Below, one piece after another: positions 10,383 through 34,400 of a DNA stretch of 64,000 nucleotides. A model generated the notes under the pieces. The model saw only the letters and a list, made by a program, of their open reading frames with translations, did no database searches and had not been told where the DNA came from. The translations under genes and the position numbers were made by a program. The stretch's first letter is position 1; each line of letters opens with the position of its first letter. The DNA comes from Candidatus Oxydemutatoraceae bacterium (GTDB lineage Bacteria; Pseudomonadota; Gammaproteobacteria; Poriferisulfidales; Oxydemutatoraceae), in assembly GCA_965220085.1 (NCBI GenBank), contig CBDCOZ010000003.1, positions 1,760,001 to 1,824,000 on the forward strand, given 5' to 3'.

Positions 10383-10402
10383 TAGCCGCCAAGCCATTCG
10401 CG

Positions 10403-10457
10403 AGTCAGCCCACAAGGGAGCGTACGGCGCGAGCGCTTCCCCGCAGGGGAGAGTGAT
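10403..10457 (-). other. Conserved 3' non-coding element after giant gene 1 (hairpin, no U-tract)
   Basis: Near-identical to 53690-53744 after giant gene 2; the 26-bp core GGAGCGTACGGCGCGAGCGCTTCCCC is identical. Confidence 0.8.
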
Positions 10458-13400
10458 TTATCGCAACGGGCCTTCCAAGAAGAGGCGCAGACGCAACCTC
10501 AGCACGCTGGCTTCCACAGTTATTGTCAACTCCAATTCCGAAGTTATTCCTTCTCTTTCGGCTTGAACCGTTATCATTTGATCTCCCGCGGTCAACGCGC
10601 TTGCGACAGTGATTACGCCCTCGGCGTTTATTGCGAACATTCCGCCCGCGTTATCGGTCAACTCCCAGATCGCATTCGTCACAGCATTGCCGTTCTCATC
10701 GCGCACCATCAGCGTGATGCCGGTCACCGCCGTGCCTTCCGCCGCATCTTCGGCGATGGCATTGGGAGCAGGGTCGCTATCGGTAATCGTCAGTGTCGCG
10801 GGGGCAAGCGGACTGGAAACTACTATCGTCAGCGTCAATTCGTTTGAAGCGAGTTCTCCTCTTCTGGCGCGAACCGTTATCGTTTGCTCTCCTGCGCTCA
10901 ACTCGCCTGCGACAGTGATTACGCCCGTATTGCTGCTTATTGCGAACATTCCGCCCGCGTTATCGGTCAACTCCCAGATCGCATTCGTCACAGCATTGCC
11001 GTTCTCATCGCGCACCATCAGCGTGATGCCGGTCACCGCCGTGCCTTCCGCCGCATCTTCGGCGATGGCATTGGGAGCAGGGTCGCTATCGGTAATCGTC
11101 AGTGTCGCGGGGGCAAGCGGACTGGAAACTACTATCGTCAGCGTCAATTCGTTTGAAGCGAGTTCTCCTCTTCTGGCGCGAACCGTTATCGTTTGCTCTC
11201 CTGCGCTCAACTCGCCTGCGACAGTGATTACGCCCGTATTGCTGCTTATTGCGAACATTCCGCCCGCGTTATCGGTCAACTCCCAGATCGCATTCGTCAC
11301 AGCATTGCCGTTCTCATCGCGCACCATCAGCGTGATGCCGGTCACCGCCGTGCCTTCCGCCGCATCTTCGGCGATGGCATTGGGAGCAGGGTCGCTATCG
11401 GTAATCGTCAGCGATGGGAGAGACGCCGCGGAACGGCTCGCTTCGCCGCCATTGACGACCGCCGTGATGTGATAGACAGCGGCGGCGGACGTAGCCGAGT
11501 CCGTATAGGAGTAGGTAACGCCGTTCTCGCCGTTCTCCTCGGTGATGTCATCCGCCGCCAGGCTCAGGGCCGCCCCGTTGCGGTAGAGGGCATAGCCGAC
11601 AGACGGCGGGACGACCGGCCAGTGTGAGATGTCCGGCGCAGTCCAACTCAGTGTTATGCCGGTGGCGCTGGTCGCGGAGATTTCCACATTTTGCGGGCCT
11701 TCGCGCAATTGATAACCGAATTCCTCCCAACTCGCCATGCCGTCATTGTTAAAGTCAATCTTCAACGCCGGGTATTGATCGGCGGCGCCGAAGTCCCAAT
11801 AGTCGGTCGGATTGCCATCGGCATCATTCGCGTTCCAGTTGGCATAGATGCCGGCATAGCTGGTCGGAGCCTGCAACTCAACGGTTGTCTGCGACGTAAT
11901 GCCGGCGGAAGTGCCCGACCTGATCGCGGCAGTCACGCCGGATGCCTCGGTATCCCAGTAGACCGCAATAAACTCAGGATCGTCGGTGCTATTCCTTCCG
12001 CCAATGCCGCCGGCGAATCGCGTAGCGGGGTCTACGAACGCGGTGGAATAGATATAGCTGAGGCGCGCATCTCTGAAGTGACCGATTAAGCCGCCGCCCA
12101 CGCCGCCGGCCACGCTAGCGGATGCATTTGTCGCATTTACATAACCGGTAGCATACGCGTGCTCCGCTCTGGGCTTGACCGTGGTGAGGAAGAAGGCGCT
12201 GCCAATCAGCCCGCCCGCCGTATTATCGCCATTTACGCGACCGCTCGCATAACTCAAGCGAACCGTGCCCCCTTTGTCCTGACCGAGTAACGAACCGGCA
12301 CGATAGCCTTGCACCGACACCGCCGAGTAGGAGCGTTCTATCGCGCCGCCGGCTGCCTGTTGCCCCGCCAGACCGCCGGTGTTGCCCCCCGCGCCGGCCA
12401 AAACCGAGCCGGTCACGCCGACATTTGTTATTGTGCCGCCGTCGCCAATCACGCCGAACAAGCCTTGGCTGTCCGCGTTGCGGTTGATGTGCAGGTTGGC
12501 AATCGTATTGCCATTGCCGTTGAATATCGCCGTAAAGTGATTGCCGCCATCGCCAATCGGCTCCCAACCTTCGCCGCTTGTCCATGCCGTATTCGTCGTG
12601 CCGGCGAAATCAAGCCCGTTCAATAATTCATATCCGGTGCAGGTGCTGGCACAACCCATGGCAACGGCGGCGTCGGGGAATGCCATTTCATAAGTAGTCT
12701 GGCTGCCCGTAGACGGCTTGCCGTCGCCATCCAGATCGTAGCGCACCGCGTCGAGTTGTTCCAGTGTCGTGATTTCTATCAGATTGTCGTCGTCACGGTC
12801 GTAGTCTGTCTCCGACGCGGGAGCCCTTATCACTTCAATGGTCACTGCCAACACATTGGACAGCACGCCCTCGCCGCCTTCAAGACCGCCGCCTGCCCGC
12901 GCTTGCGCCATGACTGTGTGTTGCGTTGCCGCATCGTAATCCAGCGCGCCACCGCGCGTCAGGCTGATGACGCCGGTGTCAGCGCCTATCCGGAACAGCT
13001 CCGCGGCGTCATCGACCAACATCCATGATACTTGGGGCCTTCCCTCGCCGGGGGCAAAGGTTGCCGCCAGCTCAACACCGTCCACTATGGCGCCTGCGTC
13101 GGCATTTTCGGCAATCGTATTGGCCTCCGCGTTCGTATCGCTGATGGCAAATTCATCAAATACATTCGCCACCTCTATCGTCATCCGGAACGGGGCCGAA
13201 GTCACTCCGCCGCTTGTGGCTTGAACTATGATCACGAAACTCGTCGATGATTCATAATCCAACGCCGCTGTCGCCGTAATCTCGCCGTTGATCGTGCTTA
13301 TCGCAAACCTGCCGACGGCGTTATCGCGCAGACCCCATGTCATCGGGCTCACCTCATCGCCGCCCTCATCGCGTACGATCAATTCTGCGCCCGACACCGC

Positions 13401-16400
13401 TTCGCTTAGCGGCGAATTTTCGGGGATTCTGTTCGCGGCAGGATCGTCGTCCGTAATCATCAGCGTCTCCAGCACATCCTCCACGGCTATCGGCAAGCCG
13501 ATGCTGCCGCTGACGCCGCCGGAAGCCGCCGTTACCGTTATCGTGTGGCTCGTCGCAGTCTCATAATCCAATGCGGCGCCTGTCGCAATCACGCCGGTAG
13601 CCGGATTGACCATAAACAAGGTGCTGGTTGAACTCCAAGTCAGCCCTTCCGTCACTTCCGTGCCCGCTTCGTCGGTCACGATAAGCCGGATGCCCGGCAC
13701 CCTGGTGCCTATGATTGCGTTCTCCGCGACCGCAATCATGGCTGTCCCCGTGCTGTCGGCATTTGTTACGGTCAGTGTCTCCGGAATATTCGTCACATCT
13801 ATCGTCAGTGCGACCGCCGACGAAGTGGTGCCGCCTTTTGCGACTTGAACCATCACCGTGTGGGTCGGGGTCGTCTCGTAGTCCGCCGTGCCAATCAATG
13901 TCACTTCGCCGCCGGTGGAACCGATTGCAAACAAGCCGCTCGGATCAGCCGCCAAGCTCCAAGTCAGCCCTTCTGTCACCGGCCTGCCGCCTTCGTCGGT
14001 CGCCGCGAAAACTATGCCGGCCACCGCGGTACCCGTAGTCGCCGTCTCCGCTATCGTGTTGGCATCCTCGTCGGAGTCTGTCGCAGTCAGGCTCTCCAAG
14101 ACATTCCCGACATTGACCTGCAATACAAAGTTGCTTGAATTCCCCTCGTGTGTCGCCCGAATCACCACCGTGTGGGTCGGGGTCGTCTCGTAATCCAACA
14201 TGCCGGTCAACGTAATCACGGCCGTGTCAGTCGCAATCGCAAACAGGCCGCCGGCGGCATCGCTCAGACTCCAAGTCACGCCGGTCATCAACTCGGCAGA
14301 GTCGGCATCTCGCGCGACCAGACGCGCGCCGGATAGCATCGTGCCTGTCGTCGCATCCTCGTCTATCGTCGCAAAGGCGTCAAAGCCATCGGTGTCAACA
14401 ATCCGAATGTTCTCATTGACCTCCAGTATCGTGATTGGCAAATCAAACGCATCCGAAGTCACGCCGTCTTTTGCGGCTTGAACCGTCACTGCGACGCTCG
14501 ACGAGGTCGCAAAATCCAACCTGTCGTCGGCAACCAGACTGATTACGCCCGTATCGGCGCTGATCGCGAACCGACCGCCGGCATCATCGCTCAGGCTCCA
14601 GGTCACATCGGTCACCGCCTCTGATTTTTCGTCGCTTGCGCTCAGTGTGATGCCCAGAACTTGCGTGCCGGACGTCGCATCTTCGGCAATCCTGTTCGCG
14701 TCGGCGTTGCCGTCGGCAACCGTCAGTCTCTCCAACACATCCCCGACCGCTATCGTCAGCGCGAACGGAGCGGAATCTATTCCGTCTTTCGCGGCTCGCA
14801 CTATGACCGCGTGGGTCGGGGTCGTCTCATGATCCAATGGCGCGGTCGCGGTGATTGCGCCGGCGGTTGAAATCGCAAACAAGCCGCCCGCATTATCGGT
14901 CAGACTCCAAAGCACATCGCGCACCGAATCGCCCGCTTCATTTTCTGCCGCCAAATCTATGCCCGACACCGCCGTGCCGCTCGCCGCGTTCTCAATAATC
15001 GTATCCTCGGCGGGATTGTTATCGACAATTTGCAAGGTCTCCAACACGTCCGTGACATCTATCGTCAGCGCAAACGGGTCCGAAATCACGCCGTCTTTGC
15101 TCGCTTGAGCCCTCACCGTATGACTCCGCAATGCCTCAATATCATAGTCCAATGTGTTTGCGGCAATCAGACTGATGACGCCCGTATCGGCGCTGATTGC
15201 GAACAGACCGCTCGCATCGGTCAGGCTCCAGGTCGCGCTGCTTACCGCATTGCCGCCCTCATCGGTCGCGGTCAGAGCGATGCCGGGCACCACGGCGCCG
15301 GTTGTCGCATCCTCGGCAAGCGCTATCGCGCCGCTGCCGCCGTTCGCTATCTTCAATTCCTCCAACAAATTCCGCACAACGACAGGCACATCCGTTGCGT
15401 TTGAATCCACCCCGTCTTTTGATACCCGCACTTGCAATGCATAGTCGGCAACATTCTCGGCATCCAGAGCCTCGCTCGTTACCTTCGTTACGCTGATTAC
15501 GCCTTGGTTATTTATCACAAATAAATCGCCGGCGCTTTCGGGCAGAGTCCATGTCAGGCCGTCGGTTACCTCATTGCCCGATTCATCCCGCACCGCAAAG
15601 GCGATGCCCGACACTATGACGCCCGCTAACGCATTCTCATCAATGCCGTTTGCCGCCGCGTTAATGTCTTCCAAGATCAGGCTCTCCAATACATTCCTCA
15701 GGGCTATCGACAGACTCAGCGGGGCCGAATCCACCCCGTCTTTTGTGACCGCAACCGTTACCGTGAAACTCGTCTGAGTTGACGTCTCATAATCCGGCGT
15801 CCTGTCTGCGGTGATGATGCCGCTATCCGGATCAATTGCAAACCTGCCGTCCGCATTCTCGGTCAATCTCCAGACCAACCCGTCTGCCGCCGCATTACCC
15901 GCTTCGTCAAGCGCCGCCAAATCTATGCCCGACACCGCCGTGGCCGTTGCCACATTCTCGACAATCTCGTTCGCAACGTCGTCTCTGTCGGTTATCGTCA
16001 GCGCCTCCAGCGCGTTTTGAACCTCTACCGTCAACTCAAACTCATCGCTTATGCCGGCTGCCGTTACCGCCACCGTCAGCATATGGGTCGGAGTCGTCTC
16101 ATAGTCCGCTTCGCCGACCAATGTAATCTCGCCGCCGGTCGTGCTTATCGCGAACAAGTTGCCCGGGTTCGCCGCCAGACTCCAAGTCAGCCCTTCTGTC
16201 ACCGGCCTGCCGCCTTCGTCGGTCACTGCGAAAGCTATGCCGGCCACCGCGGTACCCGAAGTCGCGTTCTCTGCGATTGTGTTCTCAGCGGTATCGCTGT
16301 CTGTGACGGTCAGCGTCTCCAACACATTCGTCACATGTATCGTCAGTTCAACCGCCGACGAAGTGATTCCGTCTTTTGCGACTTGAACCATCACCGTGTG

Positions 16401-19400
16401 GGTCGGGGTCGTCTCGTGGTCCGCCGCGCCGGTCAATGTAATCTCGCCGTTGGTGGAAGCGACCGCAAACAAGCCACTCGGGTCGGATGCCAAGCTCCAA
16501 TCCAGCCCTTCTGTCACTGGTCTGCCGCCTTCGTCGGTCACGACCAATGCGATGCCGCTCACCGCGCTACCCGAAGTCGCGTTCTCCGCTATCGTGTTGT
16601 CATCGCTATCGGAGTCTGTCACAGTCAGGCTCTCCAAGACATTCCCCACATTCACCCGCAATACAAAGTGACTTGAATTCTCCCCGGTCGTCGCCCGAAT
16701 CACCAACGTGTGGGTCGGGGTCGCCTCATAATCCAACATGCCGGCCAACGTAATCTCGCCACTGGTCGTGCCTATCGCAAACAGGCCGCCGGCGGTGTTT
16801 GTCAATTCCCAACTTACGCTGCTCAACTCAGCGCCGTCGGCATCTCTTGCGACAAGAGCCAAACCGGGCAGCGCATCGCCCGCCTCCGCATCCTCGTCTA
16901 TCGCCGCGGAGGTGTCATTGCCATCGGTGTCAACAATCAGAACATTTTCATTGACGTCCAGTATCGTGATCATCAATTCAAACATAGCCGAAGTCACTCC
17001 GTCTTTTTCAACTTGAACCATCACCGTGGCGCTCGACGAGGTCTCAAAATCCAGACTGTCGCCGACAATTAAGCGGATCATGCCGTTGGCATCTATTGCG
17101 AACAGGCCATCGCCACCGAACAAAGCCCATGTCAGGCCGGTCGTCACCGCAGAGCCCCCTTCGTCGGTCACTGTCAATGCGGTGCCGACTACCGCCGTAT
17201 CGGCTACCGCCGTCTCCACGATTACATTGTCAGCGTTGTCGCTGTCTGTGACGGTCAGTGTCTCCAACACATTCGTCACGTTTATCCTCAGTGTCACTAC
17301 GGCAGGCTGATAACCGTCGGCTTCGGCTGTTAACGTTACGGTATGGTTGCGCGCGGTTTCGTAGTCCAGCGTGTTGTCCGCAACCAAAGTGATGACACCG
17401 CTGGTACTGCCTACTGTGAACAAGCCGCTCGGATCGGTCAGGTTCCAGGTCACACTGCTTACGGCAGCGCCACTAGAGTCTTGTGCCGCCAGCGTTACAT
17501 CCGCTATCGCAGTACCCGCCGCTGCGTCTTCCGCTATCGTCGCTGTGTTGGCAGCGCCTGTCGCATCGGTGTCCGCAATCTGCAACTGCGGCAAGGTCTC
17601 ATCAACATCGGTCACCGCTATCGTCAGCGACAACTCGTTGGAATCTATGCCGTCCTTTGTCGCCTGCGCCATAACTGTGTGTTGCGATGATGCCTCGTAG
17701 TCCAGCGCACCCTCTGCGGTAATCACGCCACTGGCGCTGTTTATTGCAAACAGACCGCTCGCATCGATCAATCTCCAGACCACTTCGCTTACCGTAGCGC
17801 CACCTTCGTCGCTTGCGGTCAGAGCGATGCCCGGCACTACTGTGCCGGCTGGCGCATTCTCGGCTAGCTCTATCGCACCGCTGCCGCCGTTTGCTATCGT
17901 CAGCGTCTCCAACACATTCGTCACGTTTATCCTCAGTGTCACTACGGCAGGCTGATAACCGTCGGCTTCGGCTGTTAACGTTACGGTATGGCTGCGCGCG
18001 GTTTCGTAGTCCAGCGTGTTGTCCGCAACCAAAGTGATGACACCGCTGGTACTGCCTACTGTGAACAAGCCGCTCGGATCGGTCAGGCTCCAAATCACTC
18101 CGTTCACCGTAGCGCCGCCAGAGTCTTGTGCCGCCAGCGTTACATCCGCTATCGCAGTGCCTGCTGATGCGTCCTCCGCTATCGTCGCTGTGTTGGCATC
18201 GCCTGCCGCATCGGTGTCCGCAATCTGCAACTGCGGCAGGGTCTCGTCAATATCGGTCACCGCAATGGTCACTTCTATTGTGTCGCTGACAGTGCCCGTT
18301 GAAGCCTGTGCGATTATCGTGTGGCTCTGCGTTGTCTCATAATCCAATGCGCCCGCCAACGTCACGACTCCGCTTTCAGAGTCAATCGCAAACCGACCTC
18401 CCGCGTTATTGCTTAGATCCCATGCGAAGTCTGTGCCGCCGGTCAGAGACAGACTGCCTTCGCTCGCGGTCAGGATGATGCCCGGCACCACGGCGCCGAC
18501 CGCCGCATTCTCGGCGAGCTCTATCGCACCCATGCCGCTGTTCGCTACCGTCAATGTCTCCAACACATTCGTTACGGCAATGGTCACTGCTATTGTCTCG
18601 CTGACAGCGCCGGTTGAGGCTCGCGCCGTTATCGTGTGGCTCTGTGCCATCTCATAATCCAATGCGCCCGCCAACGTGACGACTCCGCTTTCAGAGTCAA
18701 TCGCAAACAAACTGCCCGCGGCATCGCTTAGATCCCATGCGAAGTCCGTGCCGCCGGTCAGAGGCAGACTGCCTTCGCTCGCGGTCAAGGCGATGCCCGG
18801 TACCACGGCGCCGACGGTCGCATTCTCGGCAAGCGCTATCGCACCGCTGCCGCCGTTCGCTACCGTCAGTGTCTCCGCCACATTCGTTACGGCAATAGTC
18901 ACTTCTATTGTGCTGCTGACAGTGCCCGTTGAGGCTTGCGCCGTTATCGTGTGGCTCTGCGCTGTCTCATAATCCAATGCGCCCGCCACCGTGACCACTC
19001 CGCTTTCAGAGTCAATCGCAAACCGACCGACGGCGTCATCGCTTAGCTCCCATGTGAAGTCTGTGCCGCCGGTCAGAGGCAGACTGCCTTCGCTCGCGGT
19101 CAAGGTGATGCCCGGTACCACGGTGCCGACGGTCGCATTCTCGGCAAGCGCTATCGCAGCGCTGCCGCCGTTCGCTACCGTCAGTGTCTCCGCCACATTC
19201 GTCACGGCAATGGTCACCTCTATTGTCTCGCTGACAGCGCCCGTTGAGGCTTGTGCGATTATCGTGTGGCTCTGTGCCATCTCATAATCCAATGCGCCCG
19301 CCAACGTGACGACTCCGCTTTCAGAGTCAATCGCAAACCGACCGACGGCGTCATCGCTTAGCTCCCATGTGAAGTCTATGCCGCCGGTCAGAGGCAGACT

Positions 19401-22400
19401 GCCTTCGCTCGCGGTCAGGGTGATGCCCGGCACCACGGCGCCGACTGTCGCATTCTCGGCAAGATTTATCGCACCGTTGCCGCTGTTCGCTACCGTCAGT
19501 GTCTCCGGCACATTCGTCACGTTTATTGTCAGTGTCAGTGCGGCAGGCTGATAACCGGCGGCTTCGGCTGTTACCGTTACGGCATGGCTACGCGCACCTG
19601 TGTCTTCGTAGTCCAGCGTGTCGCTCGCAACCAAAGTGATGATGCCATTAGCGTTGCCTATTGTGAACAAGTCGCTCGGATCGGTCAGGTTCCAGGTCGC
19701 GCCACTTACGGCGGCGCCGGCGGAGTCTTGTGCCGCCAATGTCACACCCGCTATCGCCATGCCCGCCGTTGCCGACTCCGCTATCGTCGCCGTGTCGGCA
19801 TCGCCTGTCGCATCGGTGTCCGCAATCTGCAACTGTGGCAGGGTCTCATCAACATCGGTCACCGTTATCGTCAGCGACAACTCGTTGGAATCTATGCCGT
19901 CCTTTGTCGCTTGCGCCATTACTATGTGTTGCGATGATGTCTCGTAGTCCAGCGCACCCGCCACCGTGACCAGTCCGCTATCGGAGTCAATCGCGAATAA
20001 ACCGGTCGGGGTGCTCGCCAAACTCCATCTCACACCGGTCACGGCAGTGTTGCCTTCGTCGTTCGCGGTCAGAGCAATGCCCGGCACCACGGCGCCGGTT
20101 GGCACATTCTCGGCAAGCGCTATCGCACCGCTGCCGCCGTTCGCTACCGTCAATGTCTCCGGCACATTCGTTACGGCAATAGTCACTTCTATTGTGCTGC
20201 TGACAGTGCCCGTTGAGGCTTGCGCCGTTATCGTGTGGCTCTGCGCTGTCTCATAATCCAATGCGCCCGCCAACGTGACGACTCCGCTTTCAGAGTCAAT
20301 CGCAAACAAACCGCCCGCGGCATCGCTTAGCGCCCATGTGAAGTCTGTGCCGCCGACCAGGGGCAGACTGCCTTCGCTCGCGGTCAAGGTGATGCCCGGT
20401 ACCACGATGCCGACGGTCGCATTCTCGGCAAGCGCTATCGCACCGCTACCGCCGTTCGCTACCGTCAGTGTCTCCGCCACATTCGTCACGACAACAATCA
20501 CTTCTATTGTCTCGCTGACAGCGCCGGTTGAGGCTTGTGCGATTATCGTGTGGCTCTGTGCCATCTCATAATCCAATGCGCCCGCCAACGTGACGACTCC
20601 GCTTTCAGAGTCAATCGCAAACCGACCGACGGCGTCATCGCTTAGCTCCCATGTGAAGTCTATGCCGCCAGTCAGAGGCAGACTGCCTTCGCTCGCGGTC
20701 AGGGTGATGCCCGGCACCACGGCGCCGACTGTCGCATTCTCGGCAAGATTTATCGCACCGTTGCCGCTGTTCGCTACCGTCAGTGTCTCCGGCACATTCG
20801 TCACGGCAATGGTCACCTCTATTGTCTCGCTGACAGCGCCGGTTGAGGCTTGTGCGATTATCGTGTGGCTCTGTGCCATCTCATAATCCAATGCGCCCGC
20901 CAACGTGACGACTCCGCTTTCAGAGTCAATCGCAAACAAACCGCCCGCGGCATCGCTTAGCGCCCATGTGAAGTCTGTGCCGCCGACCAGGGGCAGACTG
21001 CCTTCGCTCGCGGTCAAGGTGATGCCCGGTACCACGGTGCCGACGGTCGCATTCTCGGCAAGCGCTATCGCAGCGCTGCCGCCGTTCGCTACCGTCAATG
21101 TCTCCGGCACATTCGTTACGGCAATAGTCACTTCTATTGTGCTGCTGACAGTGCCCGTTGAGGCTTGCGCCGTTATCGTGTGGCTCTGCGCTGTCTCATA
21201 ATCCAATGCGCCCGCCACCGTGACCACTCCGCTTTCAGAGTCAATCGCAAACCGACCGACGGCGTCATCGCTTAGCTCCCATGTGAAGTCTATGCCGCCG
21301 GTCAGAGGCAGACTGCCTTCGCTTGCGGTCAGAGCAATGCCCGGCACTACGGTGCCGGCGGGCGCATCCTCGGCGAGCTCTATCGCACCCGTGCCGCTGT
21401 TCGCCACCGTCAGTGTCTCCGGCACATTCGTCACGTTTATCGTCAGCGCCACTGCGGCAGGCTGATAACCGGCGGCTTCGGCTGTTACCGTTACGCTATG
21501 GCTGCGCGCGGTTTCATAGTCCAGCGTGTTGTCCGCAATCAAAGTGATGACACCGCTGGTACTGCCTACTGTGAACAAGCTGCTCGGATCGGTCAGGCTC
21601 CATGTCACTCCGGTCACCGTAGCGCCAGCAGGGTCTTGTGCCGCCAATGTCACCCCCGCTATCGCCGTGCCCGCCGACGCGTCTTCCGCTATCGTCGCTG
21701 TGTTGGCAACGCCTGTCGCATCGGTGTCCGCAATCTGCAACTGCGGCAGGGTCTCATCAACATCGGTCACCGTTATCGTCAGCGACAACTCGTTGGAATC
21801 CACGCCGTCTTTTGTCGCTTGCGCCGCTACTGTGTGTTGCGATGATGCCTCGTAATCCAATTCGCCCTCTGCGGTAATCACGCCACTGGCGCTGTTTATT
21901 GCAAACAGACCGCTTGCATCGGTCAAGCTCCAGACCACTTCGCTTACCGTAGCGCCACCTTCGTCGCTTGCGGTCAGAGCGATGCCCGGCACTACTGTGC
22001 CGGCTGGCGCATTCTCGGTCAGCTCTATCGCACCGCTGCCGGTATTCTCTATCGTCAGCGTCTCCAATACATTCGTCACGTTTATCGTCAGCGTCACTAT
22101 GGCAGGCTGATAACCGGCGGCTTCGGCTATTACCGTTACGTTATGGCTTCGCGCGGTTTCGTAGTCCAGCGTGTCGCTCACAATCAAAGTAATTTCGCCG
22201 CTCGCAGAATCTATCTCAAACAGGTCAAGCTCATTCTGACCACTCAGGCTCCAGGTCGCACTGCTTACGGCAACGCCAGCGGAGTCTTGTGCCGCCAGCG
22301 TTACATCCGCTATCGCAGTACCCGCCGCTGCGTCTTCCGCTATCGTCGCTGTGTTGGCAGCGCCTGTCGCATCGGTGTCCGCAATCTGCAACTGCGGCAG

Positions 22401-25400
22401 AGTCTCGTCAATATCTGTTACGGCGATGGTCAGGGTTAGTTGATTCGAATCTATGCCGTCTTTGCTCGCCTGCGCCGTGACCGTGTGTTGCGTTGCCGCC
22501 GCGTAGTTCAATGCGCCCTCTGCGGTAATCACGCCGGTGTTACTCGTGATGGCAAACAAGCTATCCGCGTCATCGGTCAGGCTCCAGACCACGCCGCTTA
22601 CCGCAACGCCGCCTTCGTCGCTCACTGTCAGAGCAATGCCCGGCACCACGGTGCCGACGGGCGCATTCTCGGCCAGTTCTATCGCACCGCTGCCGCCGTT
22701 TACTATCGTCAGCGTCTCCAACACATTCGTCACGTTTATTGTCAGCGTCACTATGGCAGGCTGGTAACTGTCGGCTGTGGCGGTTATCGCTACGGTGTGG
22801 CTACGCGCGGTTTCATAGTCCAGCGTGTCGCTCGCAATCAAAGTGATGACACCATTGGTACTGCCTATTGTGAACAAGCCACTCGGATCGGTCAGGCTCC
22901 AGGTCGCACTGCTTACGGCAACGCCAGCGGAGTCTTGTGCCGCCAGCGTTACATCCGCTATCGCAGTACCCGCCGCTGCGTCTTCCGCTATCGTCGCTGT
23001 GTTGGCAGCGCCTGTCGCATCGGTGTCCGCAATCTGCAACTGCGGCAAGGTCTCATCAACATTCGTTACAGCAATGGTCACTGCTATTGTCTCGCTGACA
23101 GTGCCCGTTGAGGCTTGCGCCGTTATCGTGTGGCTCTGCGCTGTCTCATAATCCAGCGCGCCCGCCAACGTGACCACTCCGCTTTCGGAGTCAATCGCAA
23201 ACCGACCGGCCGCGGCATCGCTCAACTCCCATGCGAAATCTGTGCCGCCGGTCAGAACCAGGCTGCCTTCGCTCGCAGTCAGAATGATACCCGGTACCAC
23301 GGTGCCGGTTGGCGCATTCTCGGCTAGTTCTATCGCACCGCTGCCGCTGTTCGCTACCGTCAATGTCTCCAACACATTCGTCACGTTTATTGTCAGGGTC
23401 ACTGCGGCAGGCTGATAACCGTCAGCTGTGGCGGTTACCGCTACGGTGTGGCTACGCACGGTTTCATAGTCCAGCGTGTTGTCCGCAATCAAGGTAATCT
23501 CGCCGCTCGCAGAGTCTATCTCAAACAGGTCAATCTCACTCGGGGCGCTCAGGTTCCATGTCACACTTACGGCAGCGCCAGAGGAGTCTTGTGCCGCCAA
23601 TGTCACACCTGCTATCGCCGCACCCGCCGACGCGTCCTCCGCTATCGTCGCCGTGTTGTCATCGCCTGTCGCATCGGTGTCCGCAATCTGCAACTGCGGC
23701 AAGGTCTCATCAACATTCGTTACAGCAATGGTCACTGCTATTGTCTCGCTGACAGCGCCCGTTGAGGCTCGCGCCGTTATCGTGTGACTCTGTGCCGTCT
23801 CATAATCCAATGCGCCCGCCAACGTGACGACTCCGCTTTCAGAGTCAATCGCAAACAGACCGCCCGCGGCATCGCTCAACTCCCATGCGAAATCTGTGCC
23901 ACCGACCAGAGGCAGACTGCCTTCGCTCGCGGTCAAGGCAATGCCCGGCACCACGGTGCCGACTGGCGCATTCTCGGCGAGCTCTATCGCACCGCTGCCG
24001 CCGTTCGCTATCGTCAAAGTCTCCAACACGTTCGTCACATTTATTGTCAGGGTCAGTGCGGCAGGCTGATAACCGTCGGCTTCAGCTGTTACCGTTACGC
24101 TATGGCTACGCGCATTGGTGTCTTCGTAGTCCAGTGTGTTGTCCGCAATCAAAGTGATGACACCGCTGGTACTGCCTACTGTGAACAAGCTGCTCGGATC
24201 GGTCAGGCTCCAAGTCACTCCGGCCACCGTAGCGCCGCCAGAGTCTTGTGCCGCCAGCGCTACATCCGCTATCGCAGTGCCTCCCGTTGCCGACTCCGCT
24301 ATCGTCGCCGTGTTGGCATCGCCTGTCGTATCGGTGTCCGCAATCTGCAACTGCGGCAGAGTCTCGTCAATATCCGTTACGGCGATGGTCAGGGTTAGTT
24401 GATTCGAATCTATGCCGTCTTTGCTCGCCCGCGCCGTGACCGTGTGTTGCGTTGCCGCCGCGTAGTCTAATGCGCCCTCTACGGTAATCACGCCGCTGTT
24501 GCTCGTGATGGCAAACAAGCTATCCGCGTCATCGGTCAGGCTCCAGACTGCTCCGCTTACCGTAGATCCACCTTCGTCGCCCACCGTCAGAGCGATGCCC
24601 GGCACCACGGTGCCGGCTGGCGCATTCTCGGTCATCTCTATCGCACCGCTGCCGGTATTCTCTATCGTCAGCGTCTCCAACACATTCTCCACCGCTATCG
24701 TCAGCGACAATTCGTTGGAATCCACGCCGTCCTTTGTCGCTTGCGCCATTACTGTGTGTTGCGATGATGTCTCGTAATCCAATGCGCCCTCTACGGTAAT
24801 CACGCCGGTGTTACTCGTGATGGCAAACAAGCTACCCGCGTCATCGGTCAGGCTCCAGACCACTGCGCTTACCGTAGATCCACCCTCGTCTCTCACCGTC
24901 AGAGCAATGCCCGGCACCACGGTGCCGGCGGGCGCATTCTCGGCCAGTTCTATCGCACCGCTGTCGCCGTTTGCTATCGTCAATGTCTCCAGCACATTCT
25001 CTACCGCTATCGTCAGCGCTAGCGTGTTAACGACAGTGCCCGTTGAGGCTTGCGCCGTTATCGTGTGGCTCTGTGCCGTCTCAAAATTCAATGCGCCAGC
25101 CACCGTTACTTCGCCGCCAGTGCTAATCGCAAACAGGCCGCCTGCGTTATCGCTCAACCTCCATGTGAAGTCTATGCCATCAATCAAACCCAGACTGCCT
25201 TCGTTTGCGGTCAGGCTGATGCCGGGCACCACGGTGCCGACCGTCGCATCCTCGGCAATCGCGCTGGCATCACTATCGCTATCCGTCACGGTTATGGATT
25301 CCACTACATTGACAATCTCTACCCCTATGCGATGCTGATCGATTCTCTCCGCCCTTGTCGCAGGGTCGGTCGCACTAATAGTCACGACAACATCCGCCTT

Positions 25401-28400
25401 GCGAGCATCGCCCCCGTCTGTTTCATAATCCACCGCCCGTGTCAGACTGACCTCACCGGTAGCGCTATCAATGGTCAGCATATCGTTCGCATCCAAACTC
25501 CACATAATCGATGCCAGACTCCGGACTAAATCGCCATTCCGCACATCTCGCTCGTATGCCGCCAACGACAGACCGCTTATCGCCGTACCGGCCGGCGCGT
25601 TCTCCAAAACCAGATTGGTGGCATCATCGTCATCGGCAATTACCAGCTCAAATATGCTATTCACGACCATTATCGTCACCTCAAATGTGTCCGACCGCAC
25701 GGTGGCGCCGTCTCCGGTGACCGAGACTTGCGCCTCAACTGTGTGGCTATCGGTGTCTTCGTAATCCAATGTGTCCGAAGCAATCAGGCTGATAGCGCCG
25801 TTGGCATCTATTGCGAACAGGCCGCCGCCGGTCAAAGTCCATGTCAGACCGGTCGTCACCGCAGAGCCCCCTTCGTCGGTCACTGTCAATGCGATACCGG
25901 CTACCGCCGTATTAGCCGCCGCCGTCTCCGTGATCGTGTTGTCAGCGTTGTCGCTGTCTGTGACGGTCAGCATCTCCAACACATTCGTTACGTTTATTGT
26001 CAGTGTCACTATGGCAGGCTGATAACCGGCGGCTTCGGCTGTTACCGTTACGCTATGGCTGCGCGCGGTTTCGTAGTCCAGTGTCTTGCCCGCAATCAAT
26101 GTAATCTCTCCGTTAGCGCTGTCTATTGCAAATGAGCCGCTCGGATCGGTCAGGCTCCAGACCGCTCCGCTTACAACATTGCTATCAGCGTCTTGTGCCG
26201 CCAGCGTTACATCCGCTATCGCAGTGCCTCCCGTTGCCGACTCCGCTATCGTCGCTGTGTTGGCATCGCCTGTCGCATCAGTGTCCGCAATCTGCAACTG
26301 CGGCAGAGTCTCGTCAATATCTGTTACGGCGATGGTCAGGGTTAGTTGATTCGAATCTATGCCGTCTTTGCTCGCCTGCGCCGTGACCGTGTGTTGCGTT
26401 GCCGCCGCGTAGTCCAATGCGCCCTCTGCGGTTATCACGCCGCTGTTACTCGTGATAGCAAACAAGCTGCCTGCGTCATCGGTCAGCATCCATTCCGCTC
26501 CGGTTATCACCTCGTCATTCTCGGTCGCTACCAGATTGATGCCCGGCACTACGGTGCCGGCGGGCGCATTCTCGGCCAGTTCTATCGCACCGCTGCCGCC
26601 GTTTGCTATCGTCAATGTCTCCAGCACATTCAATACATTGATTGTCAGTTCCAGCGTCGCTGTCATAAAACCGGCGGCGGCGGCGGTTACCGTTACGCTA
26701 TGGTTGCGCGCACCTATGTCTTCGTAGTCCAGCGTGTCGCTCGCTGCCAAAGTGATGACACCGCTGGTACTGCCTATCGCGAACAAGCTGCTCGGATCGG
26801 TCAGGCTCCAGGTCGCACTACTTACGGCAGTGCCATCGGTATCTTGTGCCGCCAATGTCACACCTGCTATCGCCGTGCCCTCCGTCGCATCCTCCGCTAT
26901 CGTCGCTGTGTTGGCAGCGCCTGTTGCATCGGTGTCCGCAATCTGTAGCTGCGGCAGGGTCTCATCAATATCTGTTACGGCGATGGTCAGAGATAGCTCA
27001 TTGGAATCTATGCCGTCTTTGCTCGCCTGCGCCGTGACCGTGTGTTGCGTTGCCGCCGCATAGTCCAATGCGCCCTCTGCGGTTATCACGCCGGTGTTGC
27101 TCGTGATGGCAAACAAGCTATCCGCGTCATCGGTCAGGCTCCAGACCACGCCGCTTACCGCAACGCCGCCTTCGTCGCTCACTGTCAGAGCAATGCCCGG
27201 CACCACGGTGCCGACGGGCGCATTCTCGGCCAGTTCTATCGCACCGCTGCCGCCGTTTGCTATCGTCAATGTCTCCAGCACATTCTCCACAGTTACCGTT
27301 ATTGAGAATGCGACCGAAGTCACTCCGTCTTTCGCGGCTTGCGCCATTAATGTGTGGCTCTCTGCCGTCTCAAAATTCAATGCGCCAGCCACCGTGACCT
27401 CGCCGCCGGTGCTAATCGCAAACAGGCCGCCAGCGTTATCAGGCAGACTCCATGTCAGGTCGGTTACCGGACGACCGCCTTCATCACTCGCCGTCAGAGT
27501 GACACCGCTCACTTCGGCGCCAATCGTTGCATTCTCCGCAATGGCATTGTCAGTGTTGTCGCTGTCTGTGACGGTCAGTGTCTCCAACACATTCTCTACC
27601 GCTATCGTCAGCGCTAGCGTGTTAACGACAGCGCCCGTTGAGGCTTGTGCCGTTATCGTGTGGCTCTCTGCCGTCTCAAAATTCAATGCGCCAGCCACCG
27701 TCACTTCGCCGCCAGTGCTAATCGCAAACAGGCCGCCAGCGTTATCAGGCAGACTCCATGTCAGGTCGGTTACCGCATTGCTGCCTTCATCACTCGCCGA
27801 CAGTGTGACGCCGCTCACTTCGGCGCCAATCGTTGCATTCTCCGCAATGGCATTGTCAGCGTTGTCGCTGTCTGTGACGGTCAGCATCTCCAACACATTG
27901 GTCACGTTTATTGTCAGGGTCACTGCGGCGGGCTGATAACCGGCGGCTTCGGCGGTTACCGTTACGCTATGGCTGCGCGCGGTTTCGTAGTCCAGTGTCT
28001 TGCCCGCAATCAATGTAATCTCGCCGTTAGCGCTGTCTATTGCAAATGAGCCGCTCGGATCGATCAGGCTCCAGACCGCTCCGCTTACAACATTGCTATC
28101 AGCGTCTTGTGCCGCCAGCGTTACATCCGCTATCGCAACGCCTCCCGTTGCCGACTCCGCTATCGTCGCTGTGTTGGCATCGCCTGTCGTATCAGTGTCC
28201 GCAATCTGCAACTGCGGCAGAGTCTCGTCAATATCTGTTACGGCGATGGTCAGAGATAGCTCATTGGAATCTATGCCGTCTTTGCTCGCCTGCGCCGTGA
28301 CCGTGTGTTGCGTTGCCGCCGCGTAGTCCAATGCGCCCTCTGCGGTTATCACGCCGGTGTTGCTCGTGATGGCAAACAAGCTATCCGCGTCATCGGTCAG

Positions 28401-31400
28401 GCTCCAGACCACGCCGCTTACCGCAACGCCGCCTTCGTCGCTCACTGTCAGAGCAATGCCCGGCACCACGGTGCCGGCGGGCGCATTCTCGGCCAGTTCT
28501 ATCGCACCGCTGCCGCCGTTTGCTATCGTCAATGTCTCCAGCACATTCTCCACAGTTACCGTTATTGAGAATGCGACCGAAGTCACTCCGTCTTTCGCGG
28601 CTTGCGCCATTAATGTGTGGCTCTCTGCCGTCTCAAAATTCAATGCGCCCGCCACCGTGACCTCGCCGCCGGTGCTAATCGCAAACAGGCCGCCAGCGTT
28701 ATCAGGCAGACTCCATGTCAGGTCGGTTACCGGACGACCGCCTTCATCACTCGCCGTCAGAGTGACACCGCTCACTTCGGCGCCGATCGTTGCGTTCTCC
28801 GCAATGGTATTGTCAGTGTTGTCGCTGTCTGTGACGGTCAGTGTCTCCAACACATTCTCTACCGCTATCGTCAGCGCTAGCGTGTTAACGACAGCGCCCG
28901 TTGAGGCTTGTGCCGTTATCGTGTGGCTCTCTGCCGTCTCAAAATTCAATGCGCCCGCCACCGTGACCTCGCCGCCGGTGCTAATCGCAAACAGGCCGCC
29001 CGCGTTATCAGGCAGACTCCATGTCAGGTCGGTTACCGCATTGCTGCCTTCGTCACTCGCCGTCAGAGTGATGCCGCTCACTTCAGTGCCAATCGTTGCG
29101 TTCTCCGCAATGGCATTGTCAGCGTTGTCGCTGTCTGTGACGGTCAGCATCTCCAACACATTGGTCACGTTTATTGTCAGGGTCACTGCGGCGGGCTGAT
29201 AACCGGCGGCTTCGGCGGTTACCGTTACGCTATAGCTGTGCGCGGTTTCGTAGTCCAGTGTCTTGCCCGCAATCAAAGTGATGACACCGCTGGTACTGCC
29301 TACTGTGAACAAGCTGCTCGGATCGGTCAGGCTCCAAGTCACTCCGCTTACAACATTGCTATCAGCGTCTTGTGCCGCCAGCGTTACATCCGCTATCGCA
29401 ACGCCTCCCGTTGCCGACTCCGCTATCGTCGCTGTGTTGGCATCGCCTGTCGTATCAGTGTCCGCAATCTGCAACTGCGGCAGAGTCTCGTCAATATCTG
29501 TTACGGCGATGGTCAGGGTTAGTTGATTCGAATCTATGCCGTCTTTGCTCGCCTGCGCCGTGACCGTGTGTTGCGTTGCCGCCGCGTAGTTCAATGCGCC
29601 CTCTACGGTAATCACGCCGGTGTTACTCGTGATGGCAAACAAGCTATCCGCGTCATCGGTCAGGCTCCAGACCACGCCGCTTACCGCAACGCCGCCTTCG
29701 TCGCTCACTGTCAGAGCAATGCCCGGCACCACGGTGCCGACGGGCGCATTCTCGGCCAGTTCTATCGCACCGCTGCCGCCGTTTACTATCGTCAATGTCT
29801 CCAGCACATTCTCCACAGTTATCGTTATTGAGAATGCGACCGAAGTCACTCCGTCTTTCGCGGCTTGCGCCATTAATGTGTGGCTCTCCCCGCCAGCCGC
29901 TTCAAAATTCAATGCGCCAGCCACCGTGACCTCGCCGCCGGTGCTAATCGCAAACAGGCCGCCAGCGTTATCAGGTAGACTCCATGTCAGGTCGGTTACC
30001 GGACGACCGCCTTCATCACTCGCCGTCAGAGTGACACCGCTCACTTCGGCGCCGATCGTTGCGTTCTCCGCAATGGTATTGTCAGTGTTGTCGCTGTCTG
30101 TGACGGTCAGTGTCTCCAACACATTCTCTACCGCTATCGTCAGCACTAGCGTGTTAACGACAGCGCCCGTTGAGGCTTGTGCCGTTATCGTGTGGCTCTC
30201 TGCCGTCTCAAAATTCAATGCGCCAGCCACCGTCACTTCGCCGCCAGTGCTAATCGCAAACAGGCCGCTTGCATCATCAGGCAGACTCCATGTCAGGTCG
30301 GTTACCGCATTGCTGCCTTCGTCACTCGCCGTCAGAGTGACGCCGGTCACTTCGGCGCCGATCGTTGCGTTCTCCGCAATGGTATTGGCGCCAGTGTTGC
30401 TATCCGCTATCGTCAATGTCTCCAGCACATTCTCCACAGTTACCGTTACTGAGAATGCGACCGAAGTCACTCCGTCTTTCGCGGCTTGCGCCATTAATGT
30501 GTGACTCTCGCCGCCAACCGCTTCAAAATCCAAATCGCCGGCCACACTGATTACGCCTGTGTCAGTCGCAATCGCAAACAGGCCGCTTGCATCATCAGGC
30601 AGACTCCATGTCAGGTCGGTTACCGTAGCGCCACCCTCGTCGCTCACTGTCAGAGTGACGCCGGTCACTTCGGCGCCAACCGTTGCATTCTCCGCAATGG
30701 TATTGTCGCCAGTGTCGTTATCCGCTACCGTCAATGTCTCCAGCACATTCAATACATTTATTGCCAGGGTCAGTGTGGCAGACTGATAACTGTCGACTTC
30801 GGCGGTTACCGTTACGCTATGGCTGCGCGCGGTTTCGTAGTCCAGTGTCTTGCCCGCAATCAATGTAATCTCTCCGTTAGCGCTGTCTATTGCAAATGAG
30901 CCGCTCGGATCGGTCAGGCTCCAGACCGCTCCGCTTACAACATTGCTATCAGCGTCTTGTGCCGCCAGCGTTACATCCGCTATCGCAGTGCCTCCCGTTG
31001 CCGACTCCGCTATCGTCGCTGTGTTGGCATCGCCTGTCGCATCAGTGTCCGCAATCTGCAACTGCGGCAGAGTCTCGTCAATATCTGTTACGGCGATGGT
31101 CAGAGATAGCTCATTGGAATCTATGCCGTCCCTGCTCGCCTGCGCCCTGACCGTGTGTTGCGTTGCTGCCGCGTAGTCCAATGCGCCCTCTACGGTTATC
31201 ACGCCGGTGTTACTCGTGATGGCAAACAAGCTGCCTGCGTCATCGGTCAGGCTCCAGACCACTGCGCTTACCGTAGATCCACCCTCGTCTCTCACCGTCA
31301 AAGCAATGCCCGGTACCACGGTGCCGGCGGGCGCATTCTCCGCAATGGTATTGCCGCCAGTGTCGCTATCCGCTATCGTCAATGTCTCCAGCACATTCTC

Positions 31401-34400
31401 CACAGTTACCGTTATTGAGAATGCGACCGAAGCCACTCCGTCTTTCGCGGCTTGCGCCATTAATGTGTGGCTCTCGCCGCCAGCCGCTTCAAAATCTAAA
31501 TCGCCCGCCACACTGATTACGCCTGTGTTAGTCGCAATCGCAAACAGGCCGCTTGCATCATCAGGCAGACTCCATGTCAGGTCGGTTACCGTAGCGCCAC
31601 CCTCGTCGCTCACTGTCAGAGTGACGCCGGTCACTTCGGCGCCAACCGTTGCATTCTCCGCAATGGTATTGGCGCCAGTGTCGTTATCCGCTATCGTCAA
31701 TGTCTCCAGCACATTCAATACATTTATTGCCAGGGTCAGTGTGGCAGACTGATAACTGTCGACCTCGGCGGTTACCGTTACGCTATGGCTGCGCGCGGTT
31801 TCGTAGTCCAGTGTCTTGCCCGCAATCAATGTAATCTCTCCGTTAGCGCTGTCTATTGCAAATGAGCCGCTCGGATCGGTCAGGCTCCAGACCGCTCCGC
31901 TTACAACATTGCTATCAGCGTCTTGTGCCGCCAGCGTTACATCCGCTATCGCAGTGCCTCCCGTTGCCGACTCCGCTATCGTCGCTGTGTTGGCATCGCC
32001 TGTCGCATCAGTGTCCGCAATCTGCAACTGCGGCAGAGTCTCGTCAATATCTGTTACGGCGATGGTCAGAGATAGCTCATTGGAATCTATGCCGTCCCTG
32101 CTCGCCTGCGCCCTGACCGTGTGTTGCGTTGCTGCCGCGTAGTCCAATGCGCCCTCTACGGTTATCACGCCGGTGTTACTCGTGATGGCAAACAAGCTGC
32201 CTGCGTCATCGGTCAGGCTCCAGACCACTGCGCTTACCGTAGATCCACCCTCGTCTCTCACCGTCAAAGCAATGCCCGGTACCACGGTGCCGGCGGGCGC
32301 ATTCTCCGCAATGGTATTGCCGCCAGTGTCGCTATCCGCTATCGTCAATGTCTCCAGCACATTCTCCACATCTACCGTTATTGAGAATGCGACCGAAGTC
32401 ACTCCGTCTTTCGCGGCTTGCGCCATTAATGTGTGGCTCTCGCCGCCAGCCGCTTCAAAATCTAAATCGCCCGCCACACTGATTACGCCTGTGTTAGTCG
32501 CAATCGCAAACAGGCCGCTTGCATCATCAGGCAGACTCCATGTCAGGTCGGTTACCGTAGCGCCACCTTCGTCTCTCGCCGACAGAGTGACGCCGATCAC
32601 TTCGGCGCCAATCGTTGCGTTCTCCGCAATGGCATTGGCGCCGGCGTCGTTATCCGCTACCGTCAATGTCTCCAGCACATTCAATACATTTATTGCCAGG
32701 GTCAGTGTGGCAGACTGATAACTGTCGACCTCGGCGGTTACCGTTACGCTATGGCTGCGCGCGGTTTCGTAGTCCAGTGTCTTGCCCGCAATCAATGTAA
32801 TCTCTCCGTTAGCGCTGTCTATTGCAAATGAGCCGCTCGGATCGGTCAGGCTCCAGACCGCTCCGCTTACAACATTGCTATCAGCGTCTTGTGCCGCCAG
32901 CGTTACATCCGCTATCGCAGTGCCTCCCGTTGCCGACTCCGCTATCGTCGCTGTGTTGGCATCGCCTGTCGCATCAGTGTCCGCAATCTGCAACTGCGGC
33001 AGAGTCTCGTCAATATCTGTTACGGCGATGGTCAGAGATAGCTCATTGGAATCTATGCCGTCCTTGCTCGCCTGCGCCCTGACCGTGTGTTGCGTCGCCG
33101 CCGCGTAGTCCAATGCGCCCTCTACGGTTATCACGCCGGTGTTACTCGTGATGGCAAACAAGCTGCCTGCGTCATCGGTCAGGCTCCAGACCACTGCGCT
33201 TACCGTAGATCCACCCTCGTCTCTCACCGTCAAAGCAATGCCCGGTACCACGGTGCCGGCGGGCGCATTCTCCGCAATGGTATTGCCGCCAGTGTCGCTA
33301 TCCGCTATCGTCAATGTCTCCAGCACATTCTCCACAGTTATCGTTATTGAGAATGCGACCGAAGTCACTCCGTCTTTCGCGGCTTGCGCCATTAATGTGT
33401 GGCTCTCCCCGCCAGCCGCTTCAAAATTCAATGCGCCCGCCACACTGATTACGCCTGTGTTAGTCGCAATCGCAAACAGGCCGCCAGCGTTATCAGGCAG
33501 ACTCCATGTCAGGTCGGTTACCGGACGACCGCCTTCATCACTCGCCGTCAGAGTGACACCGCTCACTTCGGCGCCGATCGTTGCGTTCTCCGCAATGGCA
33601 TTAGCGCCGGCGTCGCTATCCGCTATCGTCAATGTCTCCAGCACATTCTCCACAGTTACCGTTACTGAGAATGCGGCCGAAGTCACTCCGTCTTTCGCGG
33701 CTTGCGCCATTAATGTGTGACTCTCGCCGCCAACCGCTTCAAAATCCAAATCGCCGGCCACACTGATTACGCCTGTGTCAGTCGCAATCGCAAACAGGCC
33801 GCTTGCATCATCAGGCAGACTCCATGTCAGGTCGGTTACCGTAGCGCCACCCTCGTCGCTCACTGTCAGAGTGACGCCGGTCACTTCGGCGCCGATCGTT
33901 GCATTCTCCGCAATGGTATTGTCGCCAGTGTCGTTATCCGCTACCGTCAATGTCTCCAGCACATTCAATACATTTATTGCCAGGGTCAGTGTGGCAGACT
34001 GATAACTGTCAACTTCGGCAGTTACCGTGACGCTGTGGCGGCGCGCACTGCTGTCTTCGTAGTCCAGCGTGTTGCTCGCAACCAAAGTAATCTCGCCGTT
34101 GGCATTGTCTATTGCAAACAAGCCGCTCGGATCGGTCAGGCTCCAGACCGCTCCGCTCACAACATTGCTATCAGCGTCTTGTGCCGCCAGTGTCACATCC
34201 GCTATCGCAGCGCCTGCCGACGCATCCTCCGCTATCGTCGCTGTGTTGGCATCGCCTGTCGTATCAGTGTCCGCAATCTGCAACTGCGGCAGAGTCTCGT
34301 CAATATCTGTTACGGCGATGGTCAGAGATAGCTCATTGGAATCTATGCCGTCCTTGCTCGCCTGCGCCCTGACCGTGTGTTGCGTCGCCGCCGCGTAGTC

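Follow-up and report, generated by a model that had tools for sequence, protein, structure and literature searches.

The question raised by this locus is why two neighbouring giant genes should close with the same short peptide. The window analyzed in the present study is a stretch of 64,000 nucleotides from a Candidatus Oxydemutatoraceae bacterium with a genome of 2.49 Mb in three contigs (99% complete, 55.6% G+C; G000 hereafter). Both genes are read from the minus strand and encode proteins with cadherin repeats, and an earlier note on this DNA had proposed that their common ending, L[RK]LRLRLFLEGPLR directly before the stop codon, is a new C-terminal sorting or anchoring signal. The translations confirmed the ending itself. 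Herein, we describe this tail as an element that recurs throughout the genome and that, as its codons indicate, is selected at the level of the peptide, and we tentatively propose that it serves exported proteins as a portable tag. The features of the window on which the argument depends are as follows.

10458..53096, minus strand: gene 1, 14,212 residues, acidic, with cadherin-type repeats, a tag carrier (Pfam Cadherin, E 6.2e-18 in the last 299 residues)
10458..10502, minus strand: tag of gene 1, 14 codons plus TAA, encoding LRLRLRLFLEGPLR
52866..52964, minus strand: putative Sec signal peptide of gene 1, MFHALSGFPCPLLKTGALILALAVSLFHTSAIA followed by Q, assuming a start at Met45 of the open reading frame
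53745..64000, minus strand: 3' part of gene 2, a cadherin-repeat protein that leaves the window (Pfam Cadherin, E 2e-25)
53745..53789, minus strand: tag of gene 2, 14 codons plus TAA, encoding LKLRLRLFLEGPLR
10395..10457, minus strand: conserved non-coding 3' flank of gene 1, which aligns with the gene 2 flank at about 53686-53744

The shared tail and its codons

Gene 1 ends in ELELTITVEASVLRLRLRLFLEGPLR (in a longer form, ITVEASVLRLRLRLFLEGPLR), and gene 2, whose open frame in the genome comprises 4,110 residues, ends in DPTDDDGTEPPEPALKLRLRLFLEGPLR. The passenger ahead of the tail is as acidic as previously described, with 1964 Asp and Glu residues vs. 317 Lys and Arg residues in gene 1, and the signal peptide of this protein was judged by eye from a hydrophobic core followed by AIA-Q. 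The reported codon comparison between the two tails proved exact: of the first nine codons, six differ synonymously and one by an R/K change. No difference is seen in the final five codons or the stop, and conservation continues for about 60 nucleotides beyond it, with one 26-mer shared in full. A 24-nucleotide stretch of this 3' block occurs at only two sites in the genome, the flanks of gene 1 and gene 2, and the sequences downstream of other tails differ from this flank. Because the stretch is unique to the pair, the DNA points to the conserved flank as a mark of local paralogy between two neighbours, neither a genome-wide repeat nor a part of the general tag.

The tail itself recurs widely. 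In a six-frame scan of G000, it closed 218 open reading frames (ORFs). Of these, 191 reach 60 residues or more, and together they total 162,838 codons, corresponding to 19.6% of the genome. Thus, the sharing of the tail stands, but its restriction to giant adhesins, as the earlier note had it, does not, since the median length of the bearers is 440 residues; the largest reach 15,193, 14,215, 13,255 and 9,777 residues. The commonest forms are that of gene 1 (64 copies), IRLRLRLFLEGPLR (28), LRLRLRVFLEGPLR (14) and VRLRLRLFLEGPLR (13). The final twelve residues are near-invariant across the 191 copies, and positions -14, -12, -10, -8 and -6 are occupied by L, I or V in nearly all of them. A degenerate DNA pattern for RLRxFLEGPLR followed by a stop matched the genome 211 times, vs. 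0 for the reversed control. Orphan or doubled tails were also noted (e.g. C3:23788-23881, C3:102361-102552 and C3:629416), and some tagged open frames are extremely long, with 15,193 residues in G000 (C3:1442649-1488230) and 18,986 residues in the related genome G017 (C2:452741-452830).

Several observations indicate that the tail is selected as a peptide. First, the 191 tails comprise 182 distinct 45-nucleotide sequences, followed by any of the three stop codons (TAG in 117, TAA in 50 and TGA in 24). Second, across 18,145 pairs, a mean of 5.7 of the 12 core codons differ, and 90.5% of these differences are synonymous. Third, in the same pairwise comparison, only 5.6% of the differences in the 12 codons upstream of the tail are synonymous. 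The protein-level selection previously argued from a single pair of genes is therefore upheld across the genome.

Passengers, position and distribution of the tail

The proteins bearing the tail are diverse. The 191 proteins fall into 39 clusters at 60% mutual coverage, the largest with 107 and 26 members, and the Pfam families detected in ten representatives include the He_PIG immunoglobulin (Ig) family, InlB B-repeats, S8 subtilase with Calx-beta, PPC and bacterial cadherin (Cadherin_4); three of the ten matched no Pfam family, and one Furin-like match fell below the cut-off. The residues directly ahead of the tail are unrelated: some form the closing strand of an Ig-like domain, others a Cys-rich end or an acidic linker rich in Pro. 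The net charge is negative in 96% of the passengers. A Sec-type signal peptide, typically ending in LFVVCAQAQAQ, was recognized by a simple hydrophobicity score in 160 of the 191 bearers, consistent with the predicted co-occurrence of tail and Sec export. The organism is a diderm, with genes for ubiquinone synthesis (UbiG), the prfB-lysS pair, one BamA, type II secretion and type IV pili. One passenger domain matches the NCBIfam DVUA0089 family (E 4.2e-25), and matches below the cut-off were obtained with the FxDxF PEP-CTERM and choice-of-anchor U families; all three families are defined by pairing with other anchors. Moreover, one PPC protein of G000 ends in poly-Gly, a hydrophobic helix and RR instead of the tag. 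Passengers of one kind are thus combined with three different terminal signals, in keeping with an anchoring role for the tag.

Although most copies are terminal, a free C-terminus is not required. In G000, 203 of 207 motif copies run straight into the stop. In one copy, Gln replaces the stop and reading continues, and in three proteins (C1:23865-25292, C1:36355-38001 and C3:1171407-1173515) the motif sits 40-50 residues from the N-terminus, after the signal peptide. The order of this N-terminal cassette is an MKKLL...VWA signal peptide, NPMTVPQDVLTIAQA, a few residues, P-LRLRLRVFLEGPLR, GGSSS and then the passenger, which consists of PPC repeats in two of the proteins and of unrelated sequence in the third. 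The first 56 residues are almost invariant among the three, and none of them carries a C-terminal tag. In genus g2 of the family, up to 14 residues can trail the motif core. These arrangements indicate that the motif needs no free C-terminus and is placeable at either end of a protein, and the N-terminal copies argue against a PDZ-type pocket or a C-terminal peptidase as the recognizing element. Two paralogous genes of about 630 residues, 42% identical (C3:1166006-1167916 and C3:1173943-1175820), flank one of the N-terminally tagged genes.

The tail also appears to be separate from the domain that precedes it. An AlphaFold2 model of the last 130 residues of gene 1, built with 14 aligned sequences, placed the cadherin domain at a predicted local distance difference test (pLDDT) score above 90, with residues 102-113 as its last strand, and left the tail (residues 117-130) without secondary structure (block pLDDT 72 and 61). 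In this monomer model, the tail is thus not an integral strand of the last cadherin domain; such a strand would have counted, in the earlier note, as a refutation of its proposal. Within the repeat array of gene 1, the aligned position held by SVLRLRLRLFLEGPLR in the terminal copy is occupied in internal copies by PLAPATLTITDSDPAPN, which comprises the linker and the opening strand of the cadherin repeat that follows. This alignment offers a hint, no proof of descent, that the tail may stand where a first strand without its domain would. When these 130 residues were modelled as a complex of four copies, the prediction yielded neither support nor counter-evidence.

Among relatives, the pattern [RK]x[RK]xFLEG[PA] was counted in 53 genomes of the order, 19 of which belong to the family, with the following results.

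This genome (genus g1): G000 216
Genus g3: G007 40, G011 16, G015 16, G002 14, G017 12
Genus g4: G016 26, G018 16, G003 7, G012 5, G008 0
Genus g2: G010 11, G014 7, G006 7, G001 0
Genera g5 and g6: 0 in four of four genomes
Remaining three families: no match in 33 of 34 genomes, a single match in the other
Reversed controls: 0-1

Twelve of the 18 other family genomes thus contain variants of the tail (R.[RK].FLEG[PA]...), and outside the family the order shows such variants only at chance level. The family comprises 13 tag-positive genomes and six negative ones (G008, G001, G004, G009, G013 and G005), and a looser pattern, applied to the negative genomes other than G013, gave only 1-2 matches in each of the five. 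The strict pattern of the G000 type was absent from 60 relatives, and its DNA version found nothing in public genome and metagenome contigs, in a search that fits the G000 version only and from which records of this genome were possibly excluded. A class-level scan of 401 genomes returned G000 and one single match; its pattern demanded Pro and two residues before the stop and misses the Ala variants. Taken together, the scanned genomes indicate that the tag is restricted to one gammaproteobacterial family.

Within the family, the core is constant and the ending varies by lineage. The 32 tails that were aligned, drawn from four genera, share F-L-E-G without exception. The ending is PLR in 190 of 191 tails of g1 and also in G011, where 16 of the 16 listed tails have LR; PLQ is found in 12 of 15 tails of G015, in other g3 genomes and in G012. 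The earlier note had likened the tail to a [VL]KVFLEGP[YF] strand that may begin an uncharacterised domain in Bacteroidota surface proteins; among the related genomes examined here, ...KVFLEGPLQ tails and one VNVKVFLEGPYEYR tail stand directly before the stop. Endings in g4 are ALQ, ALE or ALN, and g2 has AVIP, sometimes with more residues. Long bearers occur here as well, such as a 3,324-residue protein of G017 ending in VLRIRSRVFLEGPLQ and a 6,177-residue cadherin protein of G006 ending in LKVRIRVFLEGAVIP. Homologous tagged subtilases carry the ending of their own genus. Tagged S8 subtilase genes follow a gene for a TonB-dependent receptor in both G000 and G006 (C1:153241-166492 and C1:98911-105329, respectively). 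The tag-negative G001 retains the ortholog of this receptor, together with the far flank, but lacks the subtilase genes. The TonB-dependent receptor is kept in the tag-negative G008 as well as in G001. The largest tagged family of G000 is unmatched in 17 of the 18 other family genomes.

At the protein level, a profile of the 32 tails was compared with 1.84 billion representative proteins at E<=0.001. It matched 63 proteins, 62 of them with the motif at the C-terminal end; 13 of these derive from this genome (ten flagged by script, P0004, and two recognized by eye) and 49 from other assemblies, and several of the 49 are giants with signal peptides. Two of ten looked-up matches were named, one as a hypothetical protein of 'Candidatus Oxydemutatoraceae bacterium' and the other as a cadherin-like protein of 'Chromatiales bacterium'. 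With 191 ORFs in one genome, the family-wide variants and these library matches, the tail is not confined to recent paralogs, which would have told against a general signal. A homologue search seeded with the C-terminal 46 residues of a single bearer retrieved nothing but that protein, the 14-residue tag being too short for database E-values, and a protein-atlas search with the last 30 residues gave no usable match.

A docking strand and the alternatives

Herein, we propose that the tail, with the core [hydrophobic]-R-x-[RK]-[VLI]-F-L-E-G-[PA], serves exported proteins as a portable signal for sorting or anchoring; we put this forward tentatively, as a reading that could well be correct. First, the bearer would be exported through Sec. 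The ten residues L-R-L-R-L-R-L-F-L-E would then adopt an amphipathic β-strand, in which the five Leu line one face and R, R, R, F and E the opposite one, and a turn at G-P (or G-A) would close it. This strand would join a shared envelope receptor in trans by β-strand augmentation, in donor-strand fashion, and the docking would keep or place the passenger at the cell surface. From their length and pattern, we infer that such strands would fit addition to the edge of another protein's sheet or barrel. The receptor would most likely be a protein, because F-L-E-G is invariant, the endings are typical of lineages across non-orthologous proteins, and the DNA is not homogenized. A bolder form of the proposal, possible but doubtful, is a plug-in display, in which about 200 exported proteins would donate the same ten-residue strand, from either terminus, to one strand-lacking envelope acceptor, which could be a barrel or an Ig-like anchor, with tag and acceptor co-evolved by genus (PLR, PLQ, ALQ and AVIP). 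If true, this display would replace the transmembrane-helix-plus-sortase logic of known bacterial sorting tags.

Several points weigh against the docking of the tail into a protein receptor. First, no receptor was found. The earlier note had predicted a separately encoded docking partner, and seven candidates and every inspected neighbourhood fail. The secretin (PF00263) and the single-copy Omp85 are both present in 19 of 19 family genomes, the tag-negative ones included. Five outer-membrane-protein-like candidates fare no better. L130 occurs in 17 of 19 family genomes and misfits the tag profile, and L134 occurs in 14 of 19 and is missing from the positive genomes G012, G016 and G018. The FadL-like L129 is present in the negative genomes G008 and G001 and missing from the positive G003, and neither L137 (one of five genomes) nor the TonB-dependent receptor L128 (five of five) fits the tag distribution. 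Second, no non-tag neighbour recurs in G000, G003, G006, G012 or the examined g3 loci, where only housekeeping genes and insertion sequences (IS) were observed. Third, two of the five tagged genes of G012 are giants, one of them beside a transposase, an arrangement that would be easier with a universal target such as lipopolysaccharide (LPS). Fourth, the lineage-typical endings could result from descent, if the expansions post-date the genus split. Fifth, the N-terminal cassette is present in three copies in G000 and in none of the 18 other family genomes; as a single paralogous set, it amounts to one evolutionary event. Finally, the signal peptides were scored by a home-made, crude hydrophobicity heuristic. 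In addition, the neighbourhoods in G012, G017, G002, G007, G003 and G006 comprised housekeeping genes, a type IV pilus cluster and transposases, and a scan for acidic alternating strands complementary to the tail gave no lead. In other words, the peptide-level signal, its wide spread and its freedom from the last domain are borne out, and the docking of the strand into a separate partner is still something that we infer.

The main rival dispenses with a dedicated partner. Known LPS-binding β-strands, such as the loop of Limulus anti-LPS factor, are amphipathic and alternate basic with hydrophobic residues, and the strict L-R-L-R-L-R-L order of the tail resembles this pattern. The Arg face might bind the phosphates of lipid A and core and the Leu face the acyl region, so that the strand, on or in the anionic outer leaflet, would tether secreted acidic proteins to the surface of their own cell. 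The failure of any partner gene to match the tag distribution, the lack of a conserved neighbour, the use of the tag at either terminus and the two giants of G012, which need only a universal target, are all in favour of this explanation. However, the invariant F-L-E-G in 32 tails and the near-invariant FLEGPLR in 191 exceed what charge and amphipathicity would need, the endings shift in concert by lineage while the DNA is not homogenized, and the crossing of the outer membrane is left unexplained. We regard direct LPS binding as unlikely, though it deserves serious attention.

The tail might also act as an address rather than an anchor, that is, as an outer-membrane translocation signal read in the periplasm by the type II or another translocon and possibly then removed. 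A Sec signal combined with a second terminal signal follows the logic of two-step secretion, as in the type IX C-terminal domain. G000 encodes a type II system (GspL at C3:463634 and a 702-residue secretin at C3:454279), enzymes such as the S8 subtilases are among the bearers, and a single Omp85 and the lack of an usher leave few other known routes. Against these points, we know of no linear type II secretion signal on which such a mechanism could rely, proteins of 9,777-15,193 residues are hard to picture as folded periplasmic intermediates awaiting type II export, the tag-negative relatives have secretins too, and a signal usable from the N-terminal side of its passenger would be unusual. 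Such a role for the tail appears improbable.

Strands with alternating hydrophobic and polar residues are known to self-assemble, and the same strand is present on every passenger; the tails might thus form a cross-β sheet of identical strands, or bind a host or biofilm matrix through the Arg face, giving a mixed adhesin coat. A further point in favour is the library match named after Candidatus Oxydemutatoraceae, since PMC11685487 lists a species of the genus behind this name among the symbionts of a sponge. However, stacked Arg ladders would repel one another without a counter-ion, and the invariant E-G-P cap and the lineage-specific endings suggest specific recognition. This explanation is very unlikely.

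Finally, a role of the tail at the level of DNA or RNA, as a repeat, a recombination cassette or a 3' regulatory site translated only incidentally, is nearly excluded by the synonymous pattern, the diversity of the tail DNA and the mixed stops, as well as by amino acids kept across genera with different codons and a flank confined to the gene 1/gene 2 pair, despite the occurrence of TAG CGCGAG after 52 of 191 tails, of 27 of 218 tail ends in ORFs shorter than 60 residues, and of a second tail copy at most 300 nucleotides downstream in nine of 191 genes, traces which we read as debris of duplication and recombination among tagged genes, and despite that conserved flank itself. About 40 further tails precede close variants of CGCGAG (TGCGAG, CGCAAG and CGCGAA); the post-stop CGCGAG could stem from gene duplicates that share a 3' end, or belong to a terminator or a small RNA.

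Other genes near the tagged loci were also noted. A family of 12 coiled-coil paralogs in G000 combines ATKEDL/ATKEEL-type repeats with a hydrophobic anchor at the C-terminus, at loci including C3:496566-498544, C3:2018313-2020785, C3:1300387-1300887, C3:1342026-1342901 and C3:106204-107150; several of these genes adjoin tagged-gene clusters, and no signal peptide was seen in them. Downstream of gene 1, the window holds a dihydropteroate-synthase-like gene (TIGR00284) and a DUF447 gene, at 7472-8953 and 9327-9905. The neighbours of tagged genes in a relative include a GHMP kinase and a methylene-tetrahydromethanopterin dehydrogenase domain (L124 5451-7388). Judging from these genes, the family appears to have methanopterin-linked one-carbon metabolism.

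Comparison with known sorting systems

The earlier note had set the tail apart from the sorting signals then considered, and the searches agree: the last 299 residues of genes 1 and 2, together with other bearers, matched no known sorting signal in NCBIfam and Pfam at E<=1, and a full-text literature search with the motif strings returned nothing relevant. As far as the searched libraries show, the tag thus seems undescribed.

The closest parallels in use are PEP-CTERM, GlyGly-CTERM, MYXO-CTERM and LPXTG. Like the tag, these are short terminal signals on many unrelated Sec-exported surface proteins, their copy number varies widely among relatives, and the same passenger domains are found with different anchors. 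Unlike the tag, which has no hydrophobic helix and can be placed at the N-terminus, they are described as tripartite and cut by a membrane enzyme (exosortase, rhombosortase, myxosortase and sortase, respectively); literature searches on C-terminal sorting signals returned only such tripartite forms, with a signature motif, a transmembrane helix and a basic cluster. In the tail, a charged residue stands at every second position in place of the tripartite PEP-CTERM signal, no NCBIfam CTERM family matched at E<=1, and exosortase (PF09721) had 0 matches in G000. The LPXTG motif is absent from the tails, and sortase (PF04203) likewise had 0 matches in G000. The Gly-Gly, transmembrane helix and Arg cluster of GlyGly-CTERM are lacking in the tag, which has no helix. 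Two other proteins of G000 carry terminal signals without an NCBIfam name, namely the PPC-domain protein with the poly-Gly, hydrophobic helix and RR end (C3:1167958-1169079) and a 1,369-residue protein with a helix and an RRQRR end (C3:470109-474257), and two rhomboid-family genes are present (C3:1005694 and C3:209407). Given the former protein, a GlyGly-CTERM-like system may exist alongside the tag.

Among signals of the outer membrane, the type IX C-terminal domain shares with the tag the combination of a Sec signal and a C-terminal element on hundreds of surface proteins, including proteases and adhesins. It is, however, a folded domain of about 70-100 residues in Bacteroidota, whereas the tag has 14 residues and belongs to a gammaproteobacterium, and neither TIGR04183 nor TIGR04131 matched the last 299 residues of genes 1 and 2 and five other bearers in the NCBIfam and Pfam searches. 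Like the β-signal recognized by BamA, the tag would be an amphipathic β-strand at the C-terminus in which hydrophobic residues alternate, and G000 is a diderm with BamA; the length of the tail suits a membrane-spanning strand. In contrast to β-signals and autotransporters, no barrel precedes the tag, and in gene 1 a cadherin sandwich does. None of the 191 tails ends in F, W or Y, all of them ending in R, and the listed tails of relatives end in Q, E, N, P or R; G000 has only one Omp85 and no TamA- or TpsB-like paralog. An RTX or type I signal is disfavoured by the Sec-type signal peptides of the 160 bearers, as scored by the heuristic, and no RTX family of Pfam matched the last 299 residues, in a search that did not extend to type I components.

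The remaining likenesses concern the strand itself. As in the donor strands of chaperone-usher pili and of Bacteroidia type V pili, the tag extends the end of its protein by a stretch whose five alternating hydrophobic residues could occupy a groove of a second protein. Unlike chaperone-usher subunits, the bearers are not pilins and no pilin-like acceptor was identified, and the likeness comes from the sequence pattern; the usher (PF00577) had 0 matches in G000, in a search that did not include the chaperone family. Strands of the Limulus anti-LPS factor type show the same alternation of basic and hydrophobic residues, a likeness again drawn from the sequence pattern, but they are parts of soluble defence proteins and peptides, not tags on a cell's own exports.

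The tag offers a simple marker for listing the whole surface proteome of an uncultured lineage, and its range of 0 to 216 copies among relatives is a natural experiment for finding the receptor. To our knowledge, all well-described short bacterial sorting tags consist of a motif, a membrane helix and a dedicated membrane enzyme. The present tag has no helix, and no dedicated enzyme was seen, yet it is carried by proteins from one fifth of a streamlined genome, including proteins of 9,777-15,193 residues. If the docking strand is real, it would represent a new way of holding proteins on the diderm surface and a 14-residue handle for surface display; in either case, the architecture of the tag differs from that of every known short sorting signal.

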